This document shows, piece after piece, positions 5,018 to 39,247 of a DNA stretch of 44,260 nucleotides. Below the pieces are notes generated by a model. The model was not told where the DNA came from. It worked only from the letters and a program-made list of their open reading frames with translations, and searched no databases. A program made the position numbers and the translations under genes. Source of the DNA: a virus; the IMG/VR virus record IMGVR_UViG_3300045988_065940. The stretch is one strand, 5' to 3'. Each line of letters opens with the position of its first letter. Position 1 is the stretch's first letter.

Positions 5018-5498
5018 CCGTTACACCACCCTCTTCTTTAAATTTCTTGTTATTTGACATCATAAATGCCTGCATAAACGCTTTTGCCTTTTCGTCCTGC
5101 CTCTTTTCAACCACCTGTTTCTTGCGCGTTTCATCGTTCCTGCTAAACAGCTCATAAGGCTGATTTGCATACGGCGTAGGCTTAGTGCCTTTCTTTGCAA
5201 ACGCTCGCAATATAGGAGCAACGTCAATCAATGCTTCATAAAAATAAGCTCCCTGTAACCACGCATCTTGATTTTTTAAATCCTGTTTTATCTGCGCTGC
5301 ACGGCGGTAATATTTAACTAAATCGCAATCTTGCTCCCAATATTGCTCATAGGTCATACCTATAGACAGGTAATACGGAAAAAGCTCATAAAACTTATCT
5401 GTGTAAGCAAAACGGGGGATGGGGCTTCGTTCACCTCCATCCCCCACGTTTATGGAAGAATGGCCGCTTACCAGCCAGCCTTCCAGCTCAGGTTTCCC
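5010..5498 (-). CDS. gpT-like extension of the tail assembly chaperone, reached by -1 frameshift from 5468..5809 (GT fusion about 265 aa)
   Basis: The -1 frame opens exactly at the GGGAAAC heptamer (a TGA lies immediately upstream in that frame). It runs through the 145-aa ORF 5010..5447, which has no convincing RBS of its own. It sits immediately upstream of the tape measure. Confidence 0.7.
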   Translation of the reverse strand, partial: GKPELEGWLVSGHSSINVGDGGERSPIPRFAYTDKFYELFPYYLSIGMTYEQYWEQDCDLVKYYRRAAQIKQDLKNQDAWLQGAYFYEALIDVAPILRAFAKKGTKPTPYANQPYELFSRNDETRKKQVVEKRQDEKAKAFMQAFMMSNNKKFKEEGGVTDG

Positions 5499-5809
5499 TC
5501 ATCGTTCTCCTGCTCGGGTTCGTCAAGCAGCGCCATAAGCGGCTCGTTGTACATCTCCACAAGTGCGCCTATAAGCTCGTCCTTGTGGTTCAGCTTTGCA
5601 TAAATTGCGTCAATCACATCACGCTTAACAAAACGATGATGCGCAAGAAACGCACCCGCAAAAAGTGCGGGAAGAAGCGTCATAGGTTTACGCTCCATGT
5701 CAGCAGCCACAAAGCCGTTTTTCTCCATGAGCTCGATTGTCTTTCGGGTAAATTCCAGTGTATATGTAACGCCGGAAACAGGATCGTTAATAGTAAGCTG
5801 TTTTGCCAT
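5468..5809 (-). CDS. Tail assembly chaperone (gpG-like)
   Basis: 113-aa acidic-tailed ORF between the major tail protein and the tape measure, with an AAGGAGG RBS. It contains the slippery site near its 3' end. Confidence 0.8.
   Translation of the reverse strand: MAKQLTINDPVSGVTYTLEFTRKTIELMEKNGFVAADMERKPMTLLPALFAGAFLAHHRFVKRDVIDAIYAKLNHKDELIGALVEMYNEPLMALLDEPEQENDEGNLSWKAGW
5492..5498 (-). promoter_or_regulatory. -1 programmed ribosomal frameshift slippery heptamer G GGA AAC
   Basis: Minus-strand sequence GAG GGA AAC CTG is in the zero frame (X XXY YYZ pattern), about 24 nt before the G stop codon. Confidence 0.7.
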
Positions 5810-5840
5810 GATAAATCCTCCTTATCAATTTGGCTTGTAA

Positions 5841-6272
5841 TCAGGTATCAGAAAAAGCAATAGGCGTGGACGGAGCAATGGTAATGGTCATACCCACGAC
5901 TTCGTTTACACCGCCGCCGACGGGATAAACAGAAAGCTCGCCGTCAAAGCTAAACTTGCCGTTAGAACCGTCTGGGGTAACAGTGCCGGAAACCTCCGTG
6001 CCGCCAAACCATACCGCATAACTGGCTTTCTTACCTTCAAGAGCCTTGAGCGTCTTGAAAGTGGTCATGTCGTAGTTTGCGGAGAACGACAGGCCATCAA
6101 GAGACTGAATGCCTGCAATATAGGTCTGCATGTTGTCACTCAGAGTAGTGGTTTCGAGCATTTCGGGCTCGCCGCCGAGATCGGGGAACTCTTTGATATC
6201 AACAAGCTTCGACCAGGTATCGCCTGTGTCACCTTTCTTCATCAGAAAGACTTTATATGTACTTATCGCCAT
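5841..6272 (-). CDS. Major tail (tube) protein, TP901-1/phi13-like
   Basis: 143-aa ORF with an AGGAGG RBS. The N-terminal pattern ...LVDIKEFPDLGGEPEMLETTTLSD... is typical of this family, and it sits just before the chaperones. Confidence 0.8.
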   Translation of the reverse strand: MAISTYKVFLMKKGDTGDTWSKLVDIKEFPDLGGEPEMLETTTLSDNMQTYIAGIQSLDGLSFSANYDMTTFKTLKALEGKKASYAVWFGGTEVSGTVTPDGSNGKFSFDGELSVYPVGGGVNEVVGMTITIAPSTPIAFSDT

Positions 6273-32195: not shown

Positions 32196-33149
32196 ATGAA
32201 GAGAACCATAGCATTTCTACTTGCAGTTGTAATGCTGTTTTCACTCGCTGCGTGCGGGGCGAAACGAGAAAGCGCTCAAAGCGTAGCGGAAAAAGCAATA
32301 CAGGCTGTGCAAAAATTCGATGATGAGCAAATGCAGAATTACTGGGGCACATCCAGTATAAGCACCGGCAACAGTGAAATATCTGACCTTAATATCGAGT
32401 GTGTCAAGGCTATGTTTGCAAATCTGACCTACGAAGTAGTCTCAAGCGAAGAAAACGATTCTACGGCGGCAGTGAATGTGAAATTCACCAATATTGATGT
32501 AGCTAAGGCATTCACCGATGCGCTGAGCGTCGTTATCGTTAAATCCCTGCAAAACGCTTTCGGCGGGGCAGAAGATTTTGACGAAGATGCCATCATGAGT
32601 GAAGAATTGCTTAAAGCCCTCCAGAGCGGCAGCTATGATAAGGTAACCAAAGAAGCTACCATAAATCTGATTTTGAAAGATGATGCATGGGTTATCGATC
32701 CCGAATGCAAAGACGCCGTTTTTAATGCTATGCTTGCCGACCTCGATTCTGCTACTGACGGGTTTGCTGAAAATGAAGATCCCGACCGTGCACTTATAAG
32801 CGAGGTTAGAAACTGGGCTGTAGATCTGTGGAATGACGGTATATGTGAAATGCAGTGGTACTATGGTAGTGGTACTAACTCATCAGGCGGCACCATAGAC
32901 CCCGAGTTTACTATAAGCCAAATGGCAAAGGAAATGGAAAAGAAAGCCGACTATGATGCTAAAATGGCAGCTCTGCCGGACGAATATGTTGAAATCGCCG
33001 ATCTATGGGCTAAAGTATCTGGTGAAATAGATGTGCTTTATTCCGCAATACAGGAACAAGGCCCGAGCCGCGATGGTGCGGGAATTGATGTTAGCCTATA
33101 TGAACAGTATTTTGACGCATTTGATGACGCCGTTTTTGAATTAGACTAA
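32196..33149 (+). CDS. Secreted lipoprotein (317 aa), lysogeny-module moron
   Basis: Signal peptide MKRTIAFLLAVVMLFSLAAC with lipobox LAAC. The mature part is acidic. AAAGGGGAAGAG RBS. Confidence 0.8.
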   Translation: MKRTIAFLLAVVMLFSLAACGAKRESAQSVAEKAIQAVQKFDDEQMQNYWGTSSISTGNSEISDLNIECVKAMFANLTYEVVSSEENDSTAAVNVKFTNIDVAKAFTDALSVVIVKSLQNAFGGAEDFDEDAIMSEELLKALQSGSYDKVTKEATINLILKDDAWVIDPECKDAVFNAMLADLDSATDGFAENEDPDRALISEVRNWAVDLWNDGICEMQWYYGSGTNSSGGTIDPEFTISQMAKEMEKKADYDAKMAALPDEYVEIADLWAKVSGEIDVLYSAIQEQGPSRDGAGIDVSLYEQYFDAFDDAVFELD

Positions 33150-33353: not shown

Positions 33354-33914
33354 TTGACCGTGCAATCGACTTATGAAATTCCCGATTTGACTGTGGTTTT
33401 CGCCAAAATCCGCAAAGGCAAGGACGCATCGGGGCTAACCAATCAGGAAATCGCCGACAAGTCCGGCATCGCGTACAACACCGTGTGCAATATAACCGCC
33501 GGTACTGCAAAGCAGGTTTCGTTCCACAGCGTCGCCGCCATATGCGTTGTTCTCGGCCTGTCGCTCGATGAAACGTTGGGTTTGCGCGACACCGATACTA
33601 ACGACTATATCCGTGAGCTTGAGATTGAAAACGCCTGCGCTAAAAATGACGTTGAGCACCACAAGCGCATGAACGCCGTTTACAGGCCGCTGATCTTCTG
33701 CCTTGTCGGTGTATGCGCAATTCTGCTGTGCGCAACCATCGGATATGTAATATTTGATATACAGCTTAAAAACATCGGTCTGTTCCGCTCCGGCGGCTTA
33801 ACTTTGCTGGCCGTGTTCCTGGCTATCGTGGTGCTTGCTGCCGTCGTCCTGATCGTCTTTGCAGTGAAAACCGTAATCCACGATGCTAAAACAGCAAAAA
33901 GCCCACAGGATTAA
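33354..33914 (+). CDS. Membrane-anchored XRE-family HTH protein
   Basis: N-terminal HTH (...LTNQEIADKSGIAYNTVCNITAG...) followed by two predicted TM helices (PLIFCLVGVCAILLCATIGYVIF and LTLLAVFLAIVVLAAVVLIVFAV). TTG/GTG start. Confidence 0.7.
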   Translation: MTVQSTYEIPDLTVVFAKIRKGKDASGLTNQEIADKSGIAYNTVCNITAGTAKQVSFHSVAAICVVLGLSLDETLGLRDTDTNDYIRELEIENACAKNDVEHHKRMNAVYRPLIFCLVGVCAILLCATIGYVIFDIQLKNIGLFRSGGLTLLAVFLAIVVLAAVVLIVFAVKTVIHDAKTAKSPQD

Positions 33915-33978
33915 TTTTGTGAGCATTATTCGCTATAAAATTATTTTCGGCGAATATCTAAGGGGGGCAAAGCGAATA

Positions 33979-35076
33979 ATGAAATGTAAAAAATGCAAAG
34001 CCGATATACCGGATGAACTTCATCCCGTGTACTGCTGCTACTGCGGCGAGAAGCTTCAGCGCGAGCGAAAGAAGAAAGACGAGATCAAAATACCCACGCC
34101 GCGCAAGCGTGGGCAGAAGTGGTATGTTGATCTTCGGCGCGAGGGCGTGATGGTGATCGAGGCCACCGAGGCCGAGGCGAGGGCAAAGGCGCTGGCAATT
34201 CGCACGGGAGTTGTCGCCGCCGAGAAAAAGCGCCCCCCACTCACGCTGCGGCAGGCAATAGATAATTATATCAACGATCGAGATAACGCCCTTTCGCCTT
34301 CCACCATTCGCGGCTACTACACGATCCAGCGCAATGCGTTTGCTGATGTAATGGATGAAGATATCCACGCCGTGCGCAACTGGCAAGCCGTTGTTAACGA
34401 AGAAGCTGGGCGCGTCGCGGCGAAAACAGTCAAAAATGAATGGCGGCTGACTAAATCGGTTCTGAAGCAAAACGGTGTTGCTTTTGATGTTACATCGCTG
34501 CCGCAAGTAGTACACGACGAGCTCCCGTGGCTGAACTACGATCAGATAAAAATATTCCTTGCCGCTGTGCGCGGTGCACCATGCGAGCTGGGGGCGCTGT
34601 TCGCGCTTCATAGCTTGCGCCGTTCCGAGTTGTTAGCGTTGACGCCTGATAAAATAAAAGATGGGAAAATATTAGTTCACGGAAGCGCAGTATTGAATAA
34701 GGATAATAAGCTTATTCAGAAGCGGGAAAATAAAAATACTCCATCTCGCCGAGAAATTGAAATTATGATACCGCGCCTTGAGGAACTTCTTGCAGAGAAC
34801 ACTACGCCAGTTGGTACGCCGTACATTCGTTTCAATCCTAATACTCTACGCGCTCAGATAAATCGGATCTGCGAACAAAGCGAGTTGCCGCTGGTTGGCG
34901 TTCACGGTCTACGGCGCAGCTTTGCATCGCTGGCGTATCATCTCGGCTGGGCGGAGCAGCAGACAATGAAAGTCGGTGGTTGGGCGGACTATAAGACTGT
35001 GCACGATATCTATGTTAAGCTTGCCGCGGCCGATGAAAAGCGTGATATAGATCGTATGAAAGCGTTCTTTAATTGA
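33979..35076 (+). CDS. int: Tyrosine integrase with N-terminal zinc ribbon
   Basis: The ATG at 33979 has an AAGGGGGG RBS. Contains CKKC...CCYC at the N-terminus, HGLRRSF (HxxR) and ...VHDIYV (catalytic Tyr region). It is adjacent to attP. Confidence 0.9.
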   Translation: MKCKKCKADIPDELHPVYCCYCGEKLQRERKKKDEIKIPTPRKRGQKWYVDLRREGVMVIEATEAEARAKALAIRTGVVAAEKKRPPLTLRQAIDNYINDRDNALSPSTIRGYYTIQRNAFADVMDEDIHAVRNWQAVVNEEAGRVAAKTVKNEWRLTKSVLKQNGVAFDVTSLPQVVHDELPWLNYDQIKIFLAAVRGAPCELGALFALHSLRRSELLALTPDKIKDGKILVHGSAVLNKDNKLIQKRENKNTPSRREIEIMIPRLEELLAENTTPVGTPYIRFNPNTLRAQINRICEQSELPLVGVHGLRRSFASLAYHLGWAEQQTMKVGGWADYKTVHDIYVKLAAADEKRDIDRMKAFFN

Positions 35077-35145
35077 AAATTTACAACAATTCTTACAACA
35101 TCGGCGTAAAATCCTTGATTTATCAATACTTTTAGCTGATACTTC

Positions 35146-35172
35146 ACGGGTTCAAGTCCCGCCTCGCGCACC
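35146..35172 (+). other. attP core: 3' fragment of a tRNA (T-arm, acceptor 3' strand and CCA)
   Basis: CGGGTTCAAGTCCCGCCTCGCGCACCA contains the GGTTCAAGTCC T-loop and ends in ACCA. No matching 5' acceptor strand, D-arm or anticodon arm lies upstream, so it is not a complete gene. Confidence 0.65.
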
Positions 35173-35183
35173 ATAAAAAGAGA

Positions 35184-35220
35184 AATCCCGTAGTTATTGA
35201 AACTGCGGGATTTTCTTTGT
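35184..35220 (+). terminator. Intrinsic terminator following the tRNA fragment
   Basis: AATCCCGTAG...CTGCGGGATT stem followed by TTTTCTTTGT. Confidence 0.6.
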
Positions 35221-35349
35221 TTATCAATGATTTGCGGGTTTTACACTGTGCAGATATTTTCCACAAATTTCAGACAACATCTGCCGTTTGCAGGGCTTTT
35301 AAGTGGCCATTTTACACCACTTTTTACACCACCTAAAAAATGGGTGGTG

Positions 35350-35829
35350 TTATTCCACGTCCACAATCCCTAAGTAATACGCTGCCATCTTTGCATTGGG
35401 GCTTTTTGCGTCCTTATCGAACAAAAACGCCTTTGCCATGCAAGCGTAAAATTCGGGTGTGCCTACGTTGTATTTATTGGCGACGGTGCAGTAATCCGAA
35501 TACATCATGTTCATTGCGACGTTCCAGCAATAATCGGTTATGTGATCGAATTTTACGCCGATAGACTGTGCGACTGCCGTTGTCTGCGCAATCGTCCAGT
35601 GCCCGCCGGTCGTGCCGTCGTCGTTCAGCATTTTAGAGTTCCATGCCTCCGCGTCGTCACGAGTGAATTTACCTGTGCGGCATAGGCACTGTTCCATGCT
35701 GTCTATCGCTTCCCAGCAATCTACCATGCCATGCACTGCCTGATACGTCCGCTCTGTGGACGGTGAGGCCATGTATTCAGATATGGCATTTTCAAGCTTT
35801 TCTTTGTAAGCTTTGATTTTATCTTTCAT
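35350..35829 (-). CDS. Cargo protein P5 (159 aa), hypothetical
   Basis: The ATG at 35829 overlaps the P4 stop (ATGA). It has a conserved-looking ...HWTIAQTT...NMMYSDY... core. I cannot name the family. Confidence 0.6.
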   Translation of the reverse strand: MKDKIKAYKEKLENAISEYMASPSTERTYQAVHGMVDCWEAIDSMEQCLCRTGKFTRDDAEAWNSKMLNDDGTTGGHWTIAQTTAVAQSIGVKFDHITDYCWNVAMNMMYSDYCTVANKYNVGTPEFYACMAKAFLFDKDAKSPNAKMAAYYLGIVDVE

Positions 35830-36266
35830 GCCAGTTTCACCATGCTTGCGCAAACATGCGTAACGGTACCCGCAATACCGCCGATAACCGCGCTGATCGT
35901 CGGCGCGCCATTGCAACATACGGGAATGTAAATTGTGGTTTCTACATGCAGCGAATAAATATTATTTGCCGCTGTAGTCACCTGCGCATCTGCGCACGGA
36001 AGCGCGATAGTGTCTTTAAACGCATTCAGCGTCGCCGTGCCTGCGCCGCCTGCCGTGAATGTTACATCATAGCTAATACGATAAAGGCCGCTGGACGCGA
36101 CTACAAAGCCGCCTGTAACGGTGTCGATAGAACATCCTGTGTCGGTGTTCAGCACGCCCAGAACATTAACCGGAGTTCCAGCAGCGGCGAAAGTCTGCGA
36201 TGCATTGTTATATGCATTCTGCGCACTTTTGTAGTGCTGATTTTTCAGTTTTGAATTACAAGCCAT
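35826..36266 (-). CDS. Cargo protein P4 (146 aa), C1q/TNF-like BclA C-terminal-domain-like
   Basis: The ATG at 36266 has a GAAAGGAAAA RBS. The beta-rich sequence with GLYRISYDVTF and the C-terminal ...ASMVKLA resembles the BclA C-terminal jelly-roll as I remember it. Confidence 0.5.
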   Translation of the reverse strand: MACNSKLKNQHYKSAQNAYNNASQTFAAAGTPVNVLGVLNTDTGCSIDTVTGGFVVASSGLYRISYDVTFTAGGAGTATLNAFKDTIALPCADAQVTTAANNIYSLHVETTIYIPVCCNGAPTISAVIGGIAGTVTHVCASMVKLA

Positions 36267-36286
36267 TGTAAATTTTCCTTTCAATT

Positions 36287-36324
36287 TTAAAATTAAAAGC
36301 CCGGACAGCGTAAACCATCCGGGC
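36287..36324 (-). terminator. Intrinsic terminator between P3 and P4
   Basis: Minus strand has GCCCGGA...TCCGGGC followed by TTTTAATTTT. Confidence 0.55.
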
Positions 36325-36352
36325 AAACGCTGTTAAAGCGGTCTAATGCGTG

Positions 36353-36955
36353 TTATGCACAGCCGCAGCCGCTATTGCAGCCGCAGAAGGGCGACACACC
36401 GGCATTATAAGTGTAGCCGTTGGGGTAACGGACCACGCCATACATGCGATTATCCATTTCAAGGCTGGCAATACGCGCCGACTGTTCGGCAATACGCTGT
36501 TCAAGCTGCGACTTTTCCAGCGCTGCAAACTTTGCTTCGAGGTTCGCGTTAACGCCGTCAATTGCTCGCTGTGTCTTGCAGCAGCAGTCGGCAAGCTGTG
36601 CCTGGATGCTGTTACCGGTCTGCATAATGGTCATGTTCGTGCCATTCTGAGCAAGCGCCATCTCTTTACCGAGCTGGCCGATGTTGCCCTGCGCATCGTA
36701 GCCAAGACTGCAAATGCCGTTGCCGATACTGGTAAGGCGATCATTAAGCTGGCCGAAATGCTGGCCGAAAAGGATCTCCTGCTGTGATGCAGCGGTTGCA
36801 TACTGGCCATAATCGCCGTTGCGATTGCCCCAGAAGCCGCCGCCCATGAACACAAACAAAAACAGAATGATAATCCACCATGCGCCGCCATTGCCCCAAC
36901 CGTCATTATCGTTGCGAGTTACGGCGGCGATGTCACTGAGAGACATAGTATCCAT
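36353..36955 (-). CDS. Cargo protein P3 (200 aa): single-pass membrane protein with coiled coil and Cys-rich C-terminus
   Basis: AAAGGAGAAAA RBS. Contains a GAWWIIILFLFVFMGGGFWG TM segment, a CCCK motif and the C-terminal FCGCNSGCGCA. Confidence 0.65.
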   Translation of the reverse strand: MDTMSLSDIAAVTRNDNDGWGNGGAWWIIILFLFVFMGGGFWGNRNGDYGQYATAASQQEILFGQHFGQLNDRLTSIGNGICSLGYDAQGNIGQLGKEMALAQNGTNMTIMQTGNSIQAQLADCCCKTQRAIDGVNANLEAKFAALEKSQLEQRIAEQSARIASLEMDNRMYGVVRYPNGYTYNAGVSPFCGCNSGCGCA

Positions 36956-37003
36956 AGTTTTCTCCTTTCGTCAGAAATTTTATATAAACCGTGTCGACCC
37001 GGC

Positions 37004-37225
37004 TTATTTCAGAAATTTCATAAATTCATCTGCTTGCTGTTTAAGCTGTTCAAACTGCGCCTGTGACATTCTGCCGGAACTTAAAAACTGCTGAACTTGC
37101 TGCTGGGCTTTTTCGGGTGTCATGCCCTGCGCGAATTTGCGAAATTCAGCTATCATTGCAATAGGGTTATTCGGCATTCGCTTTCCCACGCTTTGCCCTA
37201 ACATCTGCATCATCGGATTTGCCAT
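37004..37225 (-). CDS. Cargo protein P2 (73 aa), Gln-rich helical
   Basis: GGAGGA RBS 8 nt upstream. It overlaps the P1 3' end by 59 nt in another frame. Confidence 0.5.
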   Translation of the reverse strand: MANPMMQMLGQSVGKRMPNNPIAMIAEFRKFAQGMTPEKAQQQVQQFLSSGRMSQAQFEQLKQQADEFMKFLK

Positions 37226-37544
37226 TTAATATGTCCTCCAGTCGCTTTATTCTGATTTCAAGATCATTCACGTTTACTTCGGGCGCGGCCTGATAAGGCG
37301 CGATGGAATACGGCGTTATCGTCGGATAACCTGCGCCGTCAGTTGTTTTCAGCCACACTATAGGATCGTTTTCATCCAGCAGCAGCACCGAGCTGTCAGC
37401 GGCCATCCTGAACGCGTCAGCGCCGTTTCTGCCGTTCACTTTGATAACTTGGCATCTTTGCGGCATCTGCGCTCCTGTGCCCATCTGTGGCGTGTAGGGC
37501 GGTGCATATCCATAGCCGTTTCCGTAACCGTACATTCCGTTCAT
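37167..37544 (-). CDS. Cargo protein P1 (125 aa) with Gly/Tyr-rich N-terminus
   Basis: AAAGGGGG RBS. The N-terminus is MNGMYGYGNGYGYAPPYTPQ, followed by a globular segment and a coiled-coil tail. Confidence 0.6.
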   Translation of the reverse strand: MNGMYGYGNGYGYAPPYTPQMGTGAQMPQRCQVIKVNGRNGADAFRMAADSSVLLLDENDPIVWLKTTDGAGYPTITPYSIAPYQAAPEVNVNDLEIRIKRLEDILNGKSDDADVRAKRGKANAE

Positions 37545-37583
37545 GGGTTAACCCCCTTTATTTTTTCTGCCTAAATCATCGCA

Positions 37584-37617
37584 TAAAAAAAGCCCCGTAA
37601 CATGTCAGTTACAGGGC
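37584..37617 (-). terminator. Intrinsic terminator (second of a tandem pair) upstream of the cargo cluster
   Basis: Minus strand has GCCCTGTAAC-TGACAT-GTTACGGGGC followed by TTTTTTT. Confidence 0.7.
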
Positions 37618-37630
37618 GATAATGTGTCAT

Positions 37631-37664
37631 AAAAAAAGAGGGTAACGCATAATGCGCTACCCTT
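37631..37664 (-). terminator. Intrinsic terminator overlapping the stop of the sigma-r4-like gene
   Basis: Minus strand has GGGTAGCGCA-TTA-TGCGTTACCC followed by TCTTTTTTT. Confidence 0.7.
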
Positions 37665-37899
37665 TAGCTATGTCCGCTATTTTGTTTTTGATGCTGCGTA
37701 TACGCCGGTTGATCGTTTCAACACTGCAATGCCGCCGGTCGGCTATTTCGATGATGGATAATCCGTCGGCGCGTAGATTAAGTATCGTCTTTTCTTCAAG
37801 CGTAAAGCCGCATTCAGCTATCAGCCGTTCGCGCAATGCCGTTGGAAATTGCAGCTTGCATTTTCGCTTCGGCTGCGCTATTTCTTTCAAGGCTTCCAT
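37657..37899 (-). CDS. Small sigma-70 region-4 / LuxR-type HTH regulator (80 aa)
   Basis: ...LEEKTILNLRADGLSIIEIADRRHCSVETINRRIRSIKNKI... matches the region-4 HTH pattern. It is too short to be a complete sigma factor. Confidence 0.6.
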   Translation of the reverse strand: MEALKEIAQPKRKCKLQFPTALRERLIAECGFTLEEKTILNLRADGLSIIEIADRRHCSVETINRRIRSIKNKIADIAKG

Positions 37900-38031
37900 T
37901 GTCACCGCCTATCAAAGCTTCATAGATGATATCGGCAAGGTTTGCCGATGCTTCGTCAATGCCGTTTATCCGGCAAAATTCTTTGATGGTTGCAGTCATC
38001 AAACAGCCTCCGTTTTATGGTTTACAAGGGA

Positions 38032-38295
38032 TTACTTATCACACTTCGGCTTATCGTACTCCATAGCCTGTCTGCTGTCGCTGACTCCGGCGGTCGTCGG
38101 GTCTGTGACTACGCCGAGAATGGTAAGCACCGCGAACAGCGCGTTTACAACGGCCAGCAGCTTGTCTCCCAGCGCGTCAAGCTTGAGATCGATGCCGAAC
38201 ACAGCCGCCACCACCTGAATAAGCAGCAGCACCGCCGGAACGAGCGCGAGCCAAAAGGTTTTGTTTTTAAGTCTTACAGTCCAGTTGATTTTCAT
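38032..38295 (-). CDS. Holin, phage phi-LC3 family
   Basis: MKINWTVRLKNKTFWLALVPAVLLLIQ...GVVTDPTTAGVSDS pattern, 87 aa, next to the endolysin. Confidence 0.9.
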   Translation of the reverse strand: MKINWTVRLKNKTFWLALVPAVLLLIQVVAAVFGIDLKLDALGDKLLAVVNALFAVLTILGVVTDPTTAGVSDSRQAMEYDKPKCDK

Positions 38296-38309
38296 AAATG
38301 TGCCTCCTG

Positions 38310-38543
38310 TTAATGATGATGATTTTTCATGTCTTCTTCAAGATCGCTTATGCGATGGTTGATTACCTTAATCTGTTCCTCTACCACAGGCATACGCTTT
38401 GCAAACTTGTTGTGCTCCCTGACCTCTCGTGTCAGCTCGATCACCTTTGTTTCCATTACCGCCTGAGATTTGTTATTGCTGATAAGTACGCCGATAAGCG
38501 TCAGCACGCCGGTTATGATAGCTACGACTACACTTTCAACCAT
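38310..38543 (-). CDS. Lysis-cassette membrane protein (N-terminal TM plus coiled coil; XhlA-like role possible)
   Basis: 77 aa between the endolysin and holin. Contains the motif HNKFAKRMPVVEEQIKVINHRISDLE and a His-rich C-terminus. Confidence 0.5.
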   Translation of the reverse strand: MVESVVVAIITGVLTLIGVLISNNKSQAVMETKVIELTREVREHNKFAKRMPVVEEQIKVINHRISDLEEDMKNHHH

Positions 38544-39247
38544 TATTTTTTAATTATCCTCTCGCAAAAAATTATCGTCCTGAGCATGTCCTCGGTCAGG
38601 TCAACCACGCCGTCGCCCTTGCCCTGAATAACGCCGTCGGCCATAAGCTTCTTAACCGTGTCGCGGTAAAAGCCCTCCGGCACATCCTCGATTTTGTTCC
38701 ATCTGACCATTTCTTCATCCTCCGTAAGTCTTTTGTTTACCTCGGCCGCTATCTGCCCGTGCCGCTCATAAAGCCACTGCCCGGGGCAGGCCTTGTTTTC
38801 ATAGTCGCGGTGAACGGTCATGTTACAGCCGCCTTTGTGGTTCATGCGGTCGTATTTGTCCGTTGACCAGACCAGCTTTGCAATTCCGTTTCGCTTGCAG
38901 ATATCGGCTACAAGGGTAATCAGTTTTTTATACACGGCATCTTTAACGGCGTAGGGGTGTCGGTTATCGCACGCAACCTCTATGGTCACGGCGCGCGCGT
39001 CGTTGGCGTTGTTGGACGTACACCAGCTGCGTTCACCTTCGGGAACATACATCCCCACGCGCCCATCTGCGCCTATGCCGTAGTTGGCACTTGCCTGCTT
39101 GGTCTGGAACAGCCTGCCTAACGTTTCAACTGCCGCCTGTGCCGCTGCGCAGTGGATTGTGATAGTGTCTATCGCGTGCCCGTTACGGCTGCCCCGGTGT
39201 GGGGATATCTGCGTGTAGTTCACAAGCGGACTGTTTGTGTAGGTCAT
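38543..39247 (-). CDS. N-acetylmuramoyl-L-alanine amidase endolysin (Amidase_2/PGRP type)
   Basis: ...IDTITIHC...SANYGIGADGRVG...AVTIEVA...TVHRDYENKACPG motifs, plus a C-terminal module of about 60 aa. Confidence 0.9.
   Translation of the reverse strand: MTYTNSPLVNYTQISPHRGSRNGHAIDTITIHCAAAQAAVETLGRLFQTKQASANYGIGADGRVGMYVPEGERSWCTSNNANDARAVTIEVACDNRHPYAVKDAVYKKLITLVADICKRNGIAKLVWSTDKYDRMNHKGGCNMTVHRDYENKACPGQWLYERHGQIAAEVNKRLTEDEEMVRWNKIEDVPEGFYRDTVKKLMADGVIQGKGDGVVDLTEDMLRTIIFCERIIKK

Follow-up and report, generated by a model that had tools for sequence, protein, structure and literature searches.

The window analysed here is the whole 44,260-nucleotide (nt) stretch of the IMG/VR virus record IMGVR_UViG_3300045988_065940, a complete contig of a temperate phage of gut-type community origin, with its late genes on the minus strand and its lysogeny block on the plus strand. 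This study concerns a block of minus-strand genes (35350–37905), which is composed of a gene for a small helix-turn-helix (HTH) regulator (37657–37905) followed by P1 (37167–37544), P2 (37004–37225), P3 (36353–36955), P4 (35826–36266), and P5 (35350–35829). The original prediction, made from the letters alone, had described P1–P5 as a five-gene cargo cluster, insulated by terminators and preceded by an HTH gene. The five open reading frames (ORFs), their overlaps, the motifs quoted from them, and the HTH gene were all found in place. However, the region is one copy of a widespread, conserved, and self-contained accessory operon of Clostridia phages and not strain-specific cargo.

Loci around P3 relatives were collected from IMG/VR (80) and GTDB genomes (18, mostly metagenome-assembled genomes of Oscillospiraceae, Clostridia, Dysosmobacter, and Lachnospira), together with GenBank phages and assembled metagenomes, giving about 105 loci in total (cited below by L numbers), and were searched with profiles built iteratively from each window protein. 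The numbers of loci with a match were 99 for HTH, 102 for P1, 94 for P2, 105 for P3, 103 for P4, and 41 for P5, out of 105. The gene order was constant, being HTH-P1-P2-P3-P4 in 55 loci and the same order followed by P5 in 36, and the exceptions to the full block were mostly truncated contigs. The block was kept down to a P3 identity of 33–40%. The most divergent loci gave no match to the P2 profile, and at least L101 and phage CPD1 carry a small Gln/Met-rich ORF in its place. Homologues of each of the five ORFs exist elsewhere, so these are true genes that did not arise as ORFs by chance. The core of the module is P1–P4, the HTH gene belongs to it, and P5 occupies the sole cargo-like position. 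What stood of the proposed five-gene unit was the reality of the genes and the collinearity of HTH and P1–P4 when their co-occurrence was surveyed, whereas P5 proved replaceable. The HTH gene, which had been taken for a regulator outside the cluster, turned out to be a module member that is always collinear with the rest.

The label of cargo did not hold either, as conservation of the module exceeds that of the lysin and integrase genes around it. Close relatives were 97–100% identical in the module, compared with 71–95% in the endolysins and 24–99% in the integrases, and unlike sets of tail genes flanked the module. Morons, such as HK97 gp15, are promoter-gene-terminator insertions, typically single genes that vary between close relatives. 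The module resembles them in being bounded by terminators, having its own putative promoter, lying at a module boundary beside the phage attachment site (attP) in temperate members, and being carried through mosaic recombination. Its own promoter and terminator between phage modules are predicted features, namely the terminators and a conserved −10 box after a hairpin. The difference is that it comprises four to five genes plus a regulator and is conserved across very different phages, including ones without an integrase nearby. Presence in some close relatives and absence from others was not observed, as HTH and P1–P4 occurred in essentially all sampled relatives with complete flanks, among which only the P5 slot varied.

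In most loci the block directly followed the holin and endolysin genes. Tyrosine-integrase genes adjoin it in the window, L001, and L035, and a serine recombinase gene lies beside it in L095 (Dysosmobacter). In L101 (Lachnospira) and L110 (a 79.7-kb contig) it lies between lysis genes and SNF2-helicase early genes with no integrase, and L108 and L109 are contigs of 100–116 kb that carry the block plus gyrB, dCMP deaminase, and GIY-YIG genes. The block is also found in two cultured phages of Clostridium perfringens, CPD1 (CPD1_036/037/039/040) and XP41-N3, where it lies some 3 kb downstream of the amidase and holin, with genes of hypothetical annotation around it and no integrase nearby. The slot between lysis genes and attP of temperate phages, to which the original prediction had assigned the cluster, is consequently not its sole home, and the occurrence of the block in phages without an integrase nearby and on contigs of about 100 kb weakens the reading as a lysogen-specific "moron". 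P1-like proteins were found in metagenomic phages labelled as siphoviruses, myoviruses, and podoviruses. When 50,697 GenBank phage records were searched with two P3 queries, all matches apart from the two C. perfringens phages were records of uncultured viruses sampled from gut or faeces, which suggests that the module is restricted to Clostridia-type hosts.

The HTH protein (80–82 amino acids, aa) was classified as LuxR/GerE-type and sigma-70 region-4-like by Pfam and PHROG searches, which bore out the small sigma-region-4/LuxR-type gene that had been proposed. It matched Pfam GerE/LuxR_C (PF00196) with 24.8 bits against a gathering score of 23.5 (E = 1.7e-5) and PHROG families of sigma factors and regulators at about 3e-5, and its match to Sigma70_r4_2 (2.3e-4) stayed below threshold with 21.2 against 25.7 bits. 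Pfam and NCBIfam scans gave no region 2 in it. Considering that the protein has only 80–82 aa and no region 2, it resembles region 4 and is not a sigma factor. The gap between the holin and HTH genes is 30 nt long and contains no terminator, so the regulator is probably expressed together with the lysis genes. The HTH gene would close the lysis/late transcript and, at the same time, open the conserved module.

Small sigma-region-4-like or LuxR-type phage activators include the late activators of RinA/ArpU type, and those of RinA type are located upstream of terS and switch on the whole late operon (PMC3152322). The module HTH is likewise short, HTH-only, phage-encoded, and next to a promoter without a good −35 box, with upstream repeats as plausible sites. 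It differs in sitting after the lysis genes and in being paired with a small accessory operon, a comparison drawn through PHROG and Pfam scans only. A role of the HTH as a general late activator with more sites in the genome was considered and dropped, since the TGACA-N-TGACA pair occurred once in the window.

A 61-codon ORF of uncertain status (37814–37999, minus strand), with a GGAGG ribosome-binding site (RBS), shares the opening 86 nt of the HTH gene but is read in a different frame. It was detected by tblastn in 28 loci, all close relatives, was conserved only in the closest lineage (55% in L064), and had no Pfam match; gene callers took either this ORF or the HTH gene, varying among relatives. 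The idea that the two form one frameshifted gene was dropped, as the HTH proteins of other lineages have 65–110 aa and no such N-terminal part.

Minus-strand terminators were located by scan, and their folding energies were compared with those of 200 shuffled sequences. Three terminators with stems of 10–11 bp and T-runs were found, and none of the 200 shuffles folded as well (z from −4.2 to −5.4), which confirmed the tandem terminators and the internal terminator of the original prediction. Terminator 1 (37639–37663, minus strand; 11-bp stem plus T-run; −17.5 kcal/mol, z = −5.4) overlaps the HTH stop codon and is predicted to end the late/lysis transcript. The second terminator-like hairpin (37592–37617, minus strand; −18.2 kcal/mol, z = −5.1) lies in the −35/spacer region of the putative P1 promoter, flanked by TGACAC (37629–37624) and TGACAT (37607–37602). 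Its T-tail is about 38 nt from the P1 ATG, and reading of this stretch on the minus strand gave a putative extended −10 box of the P1 operon, TGcGATGAT (37575–37583), and the P1 RBS (37551–37559). The anatomy of a terminator-insulated cluster with predicted transcription signals of its own was right, but the second terminator abuts the −10 box itself, leaving little room before P1.

The fusion of hairpin and promoter recurred across lineages. A hairpin, a T-run, and a −10-like hexamer within 20 nt or less were present in 21 of 22 lineages, compared to a mean of 6 in shuffled controls, and a TGn-extended −10 box directly after the T-run was present in 8 of the 22, with 0.5 expected. Inspection of the promoter regions by eye showed sigmaA-like TAnnnT or TGn −10 boxes in the 22 lineages, and no sigmaE/sigmaK-like −10 box was seen in the aligned regions (by eye only, with no scan). 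In several lineages the −10 box is preceded by two to four direct repeats with a spacing of exactly 11 nt, the sequence of which differs by lineage: TGACCAAACGA in L093, TTGGCAGAT in L102, TATTGCAAGAA in L105, TTTACGGTTTC in L103, and GTWTTAGTGAA in L110. The HTH would bind such short direct repeats and control the P1-operon promoter, and the location of the sites upstream of the −10 box suggests that it may act as an activator. In L015, L035, and related loci an extra ORF of about 45 codons (MYDRLIACGYTEQMAADILKLF...) lies between the promoter and P1 (about 5245–5380 in L035), for which no family match was found.

Two further hairpins lie within the operon. Between P2 and P3 there is a stem-loop with the palindromic loop GGTCGACA (36984–37007, minus strand; −9.6 kcal/mol, z = −3.3), and its DNA is near-identical across lineages (the window, L001, L035, L095, and others) whose proteins have diverged to about 60%. 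The loop occurs in the variants GGTCGACA, GGTGCGCA, or GGTGCACA, and four pairs of the stem have changed on both sides, giving a covariation score reached by 2 of 500 shuffles. This stem-loop is probably an attenuator or a processing site. The internal terminator or attenuator after P3 (36299–36324, minus strand; −19.5 kcal/mol, z = −4.2) ends about 33 nt before the P4 ATG, and the equivalent hairpin in L035, L095, and CPD1 likewise leaves too little room for a promoter before P4, so that P4 and P5 are probably made by read-through. By position and folding, the two hairpins look like internal attenuators of a single operon, and they would grade its expression from P1 and P2, through P3, down to P4 and P5. 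An Rfam scan of 34900–38400 gave nothing near any gathering score.

The conserved sequence between P2 and P3 was also interrupted in two unrelated settings by ORFs inserted exactly there. In L084 such an ORF (5297–5890, minus strand) shows an HNH-type motif by eye, and a similar gap of about 700 nt between P2 and P3 is present in L059, L086, and L087. In CPD1 the inserted gene is CPD1_038 (L106, 6182–6805), which had no Pfam match and for which the label of homing endonuclease is provisional. As insertions of HNH-type or putative homing endonucleases are typical of conserved targets, the P2-P3 intergenic sequence may be a homing site.

P1 (125 aa, beginning MNGMYGYGNGYGYAPPY) matched phrog_21718 at 6.7e-9. 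Its AlphaFold2 model consists of about 30 disordered N-terminal residues rich in Tyr, Gln, Pro, and Gly, a small beta domain, a confident coiled-coil helix, and a charged tail, and it has no signal peptide. The structure search that had been proposed for models of P1–P5 was run for P1, and P3 was modelled as well. No fold in the PDB matched P1 (best E = 0.065, TM-score below 0.35), and in BFVD only uncharacterised homologues were matched, whose labels "Gal4-like", "zipper", and "membrane fusogenic" reflect the coiled coil. All 740 P1 relatives are unnamed, none of 19 relatives matched Pfam, and the P1 profile matched no PDB sequence. P2 (73 aa, Gln/Met-rich and helical; phrog_22984, 4.5e-11) begins within the end of P1, the two genes overlapping by 59 nt, with GGAGGA 8 nt before its ATG; the overlap is also present in L035, L095, L108, L110, and CPD1. 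P2 showed a weak match to TMP_2 (E = 0.002). In these searches P1, P2, and P3 had no characterised relatives.

P3 (200 aa; phrog_16490, 2e-18) is the hallmark of the module, with a hydrophobic segment, a CCCK motif, and the C-terminus CGCNSGCGCA. Across the family, the conserved features are an N-terminal SLSDIAAV, a Gly-rich transmembrane (TM) helix (approximately residues 24–42), ATAASQQEILFGQ, two long helices, a CCC motif within a long helix, and a Cys-rich C-terminus, CGVVRYP..Y.AG.SPFC.C.CGC. The TM segment is classically hydrophobic, with a mean Kyte-Doolittle value of 1.73. A single-sequence search gave 3,612 relatives and a profile search at least 7,985, counted as clusters at 90% identity, while at 50% identity there were 889 clusters. 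P3 belongs to no Pfam or NCBIfam family. Neither a Pfam domain nor an informative name was found among the best 120–150 matches of each search, 72 relatives scanned against Pfam gave scattered coiled-coil noise only (MAM1, TRAF_BIRC3_bd), and PDB sequence searches with P1, P3, and P5 gave nothing.

Two known kinds of lysis-associated protein were compared with P3. Rz is the i-spanin of phage lambda, and P3 resembles it in having an N-terminal TM anchor, two helical coiled-coil segments, conserved cysteines, and a position near holin and endolysin genes; it differs in having no sequence similarity to Rz and in belonging to a module with its own regulator and terminators. The module does not constitute a two-component spanin, since P1, P2, P4, and P5 start without a signal peptide or lipobox. 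XhlA and XepA are accessory proteins of the lysis cassettes of the Bacillus prophage PBSX. The likeness to them lies in being poorly understood, membrane-associated coiled-coil or oligomeric proteins by holin and endolysin genes, and the window has an XhlA-like gene too. XhlA and XepA are, however, inside the lysis operon, whereas P1–P5 form a separate regulated unit, and no homology to P1–P5 was detected.

P4 (146 aa) is a stand-alone protein resembling the C-terminal domain of BclA, a C1q/TNF jelly-roll. BclA is the exosporium glycoprotein of Bacillus anthracis, and its C-terminal domain has the C1q/TNF fold. The window sequence alone matched Pfam BclA_C (PF18573) at 3.2e-4 with 21 bits, below the gathering score of 38, which makes the homology a remote one. 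Thirteen of 17 P4 relatives matched BclA_C, and the family profile matched BclA structures in the PDB with E from 2.2e-5 to 1.2e-4 (2e-5 to 8e-5 for 2r6q and 1wck). On these profile matches P4 appears to be a genuine but remote homologue of the BclA C-terminal domain, and the C1q/BclA-like assignment of the original prediction was thereby upheld. The size of P4 corresponds to a single jelly-roll domain, and the profile aligns to that domain. The differences from BclA are that P4 is phage-encoded, stands alone, always comes after P3, and has neither the N-terminal exosporium-targeting region nor collagen-like GXX repeats nor a signal peptide. Lacking the GXX region, it counts as a protein with a BclA-C-like domain but not as an orthologue of BclA. 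Cys-rich N-termini of some P4 relatives raised the idea that P4 or CPD1_040 is a subunit of endospore appendages (DUF3992), which was dropped, as there was no DUF3992 match in Pfam.

P5 (159 aa), joined to P4 by an ATGA overlap, is a DUF7841 protein (PF25223, 76.1 against 25.2 bits, E = 3.4e-21), and no paper mentioning DUF7841 was found in the literature. When P5 is absent, the slot after P4 often holds an ExxH protein of about 100 aa with a weak rubrerythrin/ferritin match (L035, 6995–7402; L108, 8120–8428; L110, 8308–8607). The corresponding proteins of L101 (7095–7661) and CPD1 (CPD1_043), with 175–188 aa, resemble each other and look ferritin-like by eye, with no Pfam match. The ferritin/rubrerythrin-like proteins may hint at metal or redox chemistry beside the Cys-rich P3 and P4.

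Taken together, the best overall explanation, held tentatively and at somewhat less than an even chance, is that the module is a self-regulated operon of Clostridia phages whose products form an envelope-associated assembly on the membrane face during infection. With the Cys-rich coiled coil of P3 at their centre, the products would come together at the cytoplasmic side of the membrane, because P3 alone has a membrane anchor and no module protein has a signal peptide. P1 and P2 would be its Tyr/Gln-rich partners, P4 a BclA-type trimer, and the last slot would be filled by a small iron-type (rubrerythrin-like) protein or by DUF7841. The function would be tied to the lysis or egress stage and would not be a lysogen-only trait. 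An envelope role is favoured on three grounds: the block recurs beside lysis genes, its regulator is probably co-expressed with those genes, and seemingly non-lysogenising phages carry it too. A role of a P3-organised complex in the phage cycle is accordingly proposed with low confidence.

Several observations weigh against this explanation. The putative HTH sites in the window are just two TGACA pentamers, 22 nt apart, which is not above chance, as chance alone predicts a single such pair in a window of this size and one was found. The insulation by two terminators fits expression independent of the late operon, as had been proposed originally. The AlphaFold2 monomer of P3, which shows the TM helix and two long helices, has a low confidence (predicted local distance difference test score, 49.7), although a poor monomer model is expected if P3 is an oligomeric coiled coil. 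The orientation of P3 comes from a weak charge bias (K+R of 0.97 in the C-terminal flank against 0.43 in the N-terminal one), which weakly suggests N-out and C-in, with the bulk of the protein facing the cytoplasm, where its partners are. Clostridia lack an outer membrane, and the hosts are presumably single-membraned, so a spanin-like P3 would have no obvious target. Finally, L095 has no lysis genes adjacent to the block.

The observations may also be read as a lysogenic-conversion module that supplements the spore coat, the exosporium, or the cell surface of the lysogen, with proteins made in the mother cell and put on the spore. Temperate members do have the block as the outermost operon at the prophage end by attR, it is terminator-insulated, and its products other than P3 are soluble and have no signal peptide, like coat proteins; P4 is homologous to the exosporium domain of BclA, the P1 N-terminus is rich in Tyr, Gln, Gly, and Pro, P3 and P4 are Cys-rich, a rubrerythrin-like partner is frequent, the HTH exceeds the Pfam GerE/LuxR threshold, and two carrier phages infect the spore former C. 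perfringens. The −10 box would fit as sigmaA-type, but the sigmaE/sigmaK-type was not seen by eye in the aligned promoters. In addition, the block is present in phages with no integrase nearby and on contigs of about 100 kb with virulent-phage gene content, and the HTH gene, which follows the holin gene after 30 nt without an intervening terminator, seems to share the transcript of the late lysis genes. Some carriers were binned to genera that are not known to sporulate, such as Dysosmobacter and Lachnospira, though such bins may be imperfect, and coat and exosporium genes go unmentioned in a paper on the sporulation genes of gut phages. Of the spore-surface composition claimed originally, the P4-BclA homology is real and the rest of the resemblance is purely compositional. 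The distribution of the module also suits this reading poorly, and we regard it as unlikely. A bolder version, in which HTH-P1-P2-P3-P4 is an unrecognised multi-protein system of thousands of Clostridia phages that builds a cross-linkable coat- or exosporium-like layer or appendage on the host envelope or on spores, is somewhat less likely again. Such a layer would combine the BclA-type trimer, the Cys-rich membrane-anchored coiled coil, the Tyr/Gln-rich partners, and the iron-type protein, and, if true, would let phages directly shape the spore or surface properties of gut bacteria.

A mobile cassette for superinfection exclusion, or for anti-phage or anti-defence functions at the membrane, is about as improbable as the lysogenic-conversion module. 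Exclusion genes are carried by both temperate and virulent phages, P3 is a bitopic membrane protein, and the cassette, with its own regulator and predicted promoter and terminators, is kept while neighbouring lysin, tail, and integrase genes shuffle. However, four to five strongly conserved proteins are unlike the small, fast-evolving exclusion proteins known, and the window already has a lipoprotein and an HTH-membrane protein at the usual exclusion position by the integrase gene. Contrary to the defence function that had been entertained, PADLOC 2.0 and NCBIfam scans of all products gave nothing meaningful, and no known defence family was matched: PADLOC gave no match for P1, P2, P4, and P5, and P3 gave only a chance-level coiled-coil match to ZorA (PADLOC E = 0.034; NCBIfam 14.8 bits against a cut-off of 190). 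Least probable of all, and in our estimate very unlikely, is a virion-associated structure such as a head or tail fibre with a P3 coiled-coil shaft, a C1q-like P4 knob, and P1 and P2 as assembly factors. Trimers of TNF/C1q-like fold form the knobs of several viral fibres, the P4 profile weakly matched the PRD1 P5 spike (1yq5/1yq8, E = 0.3–1), the module lies at the end of the late region, no module protein has an export signal, and the weak TMP_2 match of P2 would fit as well. A classical hydrophobic TM segment in P3 speaks against such a structure, and the lysis cassette and two terminators separate the module from the structural genes. Moreover, the module accompanies unrelated tail gene sets, P1-like proteins occur in phages of three morphological labels, and the matching PHROG families have no structural annotation.

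Searches of families, structures, and literature found no description of P1, P2, P3, or the whole module, including the literature on BclA in phages, phage CPD1, phage-borne sporulation genes, and region-4-like regulators behind lysis genes. The module can be classed as a promoter- and terminator-bounded phage accessory cassette that is new in having its own regulator, and it is possible that it is a categorically new system. The P3 family, with at least about 8,000 clusters, is unnamed and without a Pfam model, and its members usually come with the same three to four partners and the regulator. The conservation of the block in such different phages of gut Clostridia, be they temperate, large, or without an integrase nearby, makes it unlikely to be a dispensable decoration. 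The block marks an unrecognised step in the biology of phages whose hosts dominate the human gut and include pathogens, and its presence in cultured C. perfringens phages makes the question testable now. Its regulatory layout, with the terminator-promoter fusion, the lineage-specific phased repeats, and the internal attenuators, may serve as a compact design for expression control in Clostridia.

On the minus strand of the window, the late genes comprise tail genes followed by an Amidase_2 endolysin (38543–39247), an XhlA-like protein (38310–38543), and a holin of the Phage_holin_1 family (38032–38295), as assigned by Pfam and PHROG scans. The lysogeny block ends with a tyrosine integrase gene (33883–35076, plus strand), just past which lies the attP core (35148–35173, plus strand), the last 26 nt of the 3ʹ end of tRNA-Leu(CAG), with a single match in the window. 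ARAGORN found no complete tRNA in the window, where the 3ʹ fragment alone is present. In the integrated copy L004, a bacterial contig of 135 kb, a complete tRNA-Leu(CAG) stands at the prophage junction directly after P5, and the phage form and the integrated form part ways within this 26-nt segment. A partial tRNA beside the integrase gene and a full tRNA at the junction are as expected for the attP of a tRNA-targeting tyrosine integrase. The position of the cluster between lysis cassette and attP, as described in the original prediction, was confirmed by these features and by the lysis genes upstream. A palindromic terminator (35182–35214) that can serve either strand lies between the module end and the integrase gene; the minus-strand fold has −17.1 kcal/mol and z = −4.5, and the plus-strand terminator was found by scan. 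Between the P5 stop codon and the attP core there are tandem GGTGGTGTAAAA / GTGGTGTAAAA repeats (35310–35333, minus strand), which are kept in L004 and L005 and may be candidate arm-type integrase binding sites.

Upstream of the integrase gene, the plus strand encodes a 317-aa lipoprotein (32196–33149) and, just before the integrase gene, a 186-aa protein with an N-terminal HTH and a C-terminal membrane segment (33354–33914). An HTH-membrane protein also lies beside the integrase gene in L001 (3975–4577) and L035 (8749–9351), and this neighbourhood is the usual site of superinfection-exclusion or immunity functions. In the close relatives L006 (11921–13351) and L007 (11872–13428), a nuclease-like gene with SNIPE/T5orf172/MUG113 domains takes the place of the lipoprotein gene of the window, and this site of the lysogeny region is the truly variable cargo position of the phage group.

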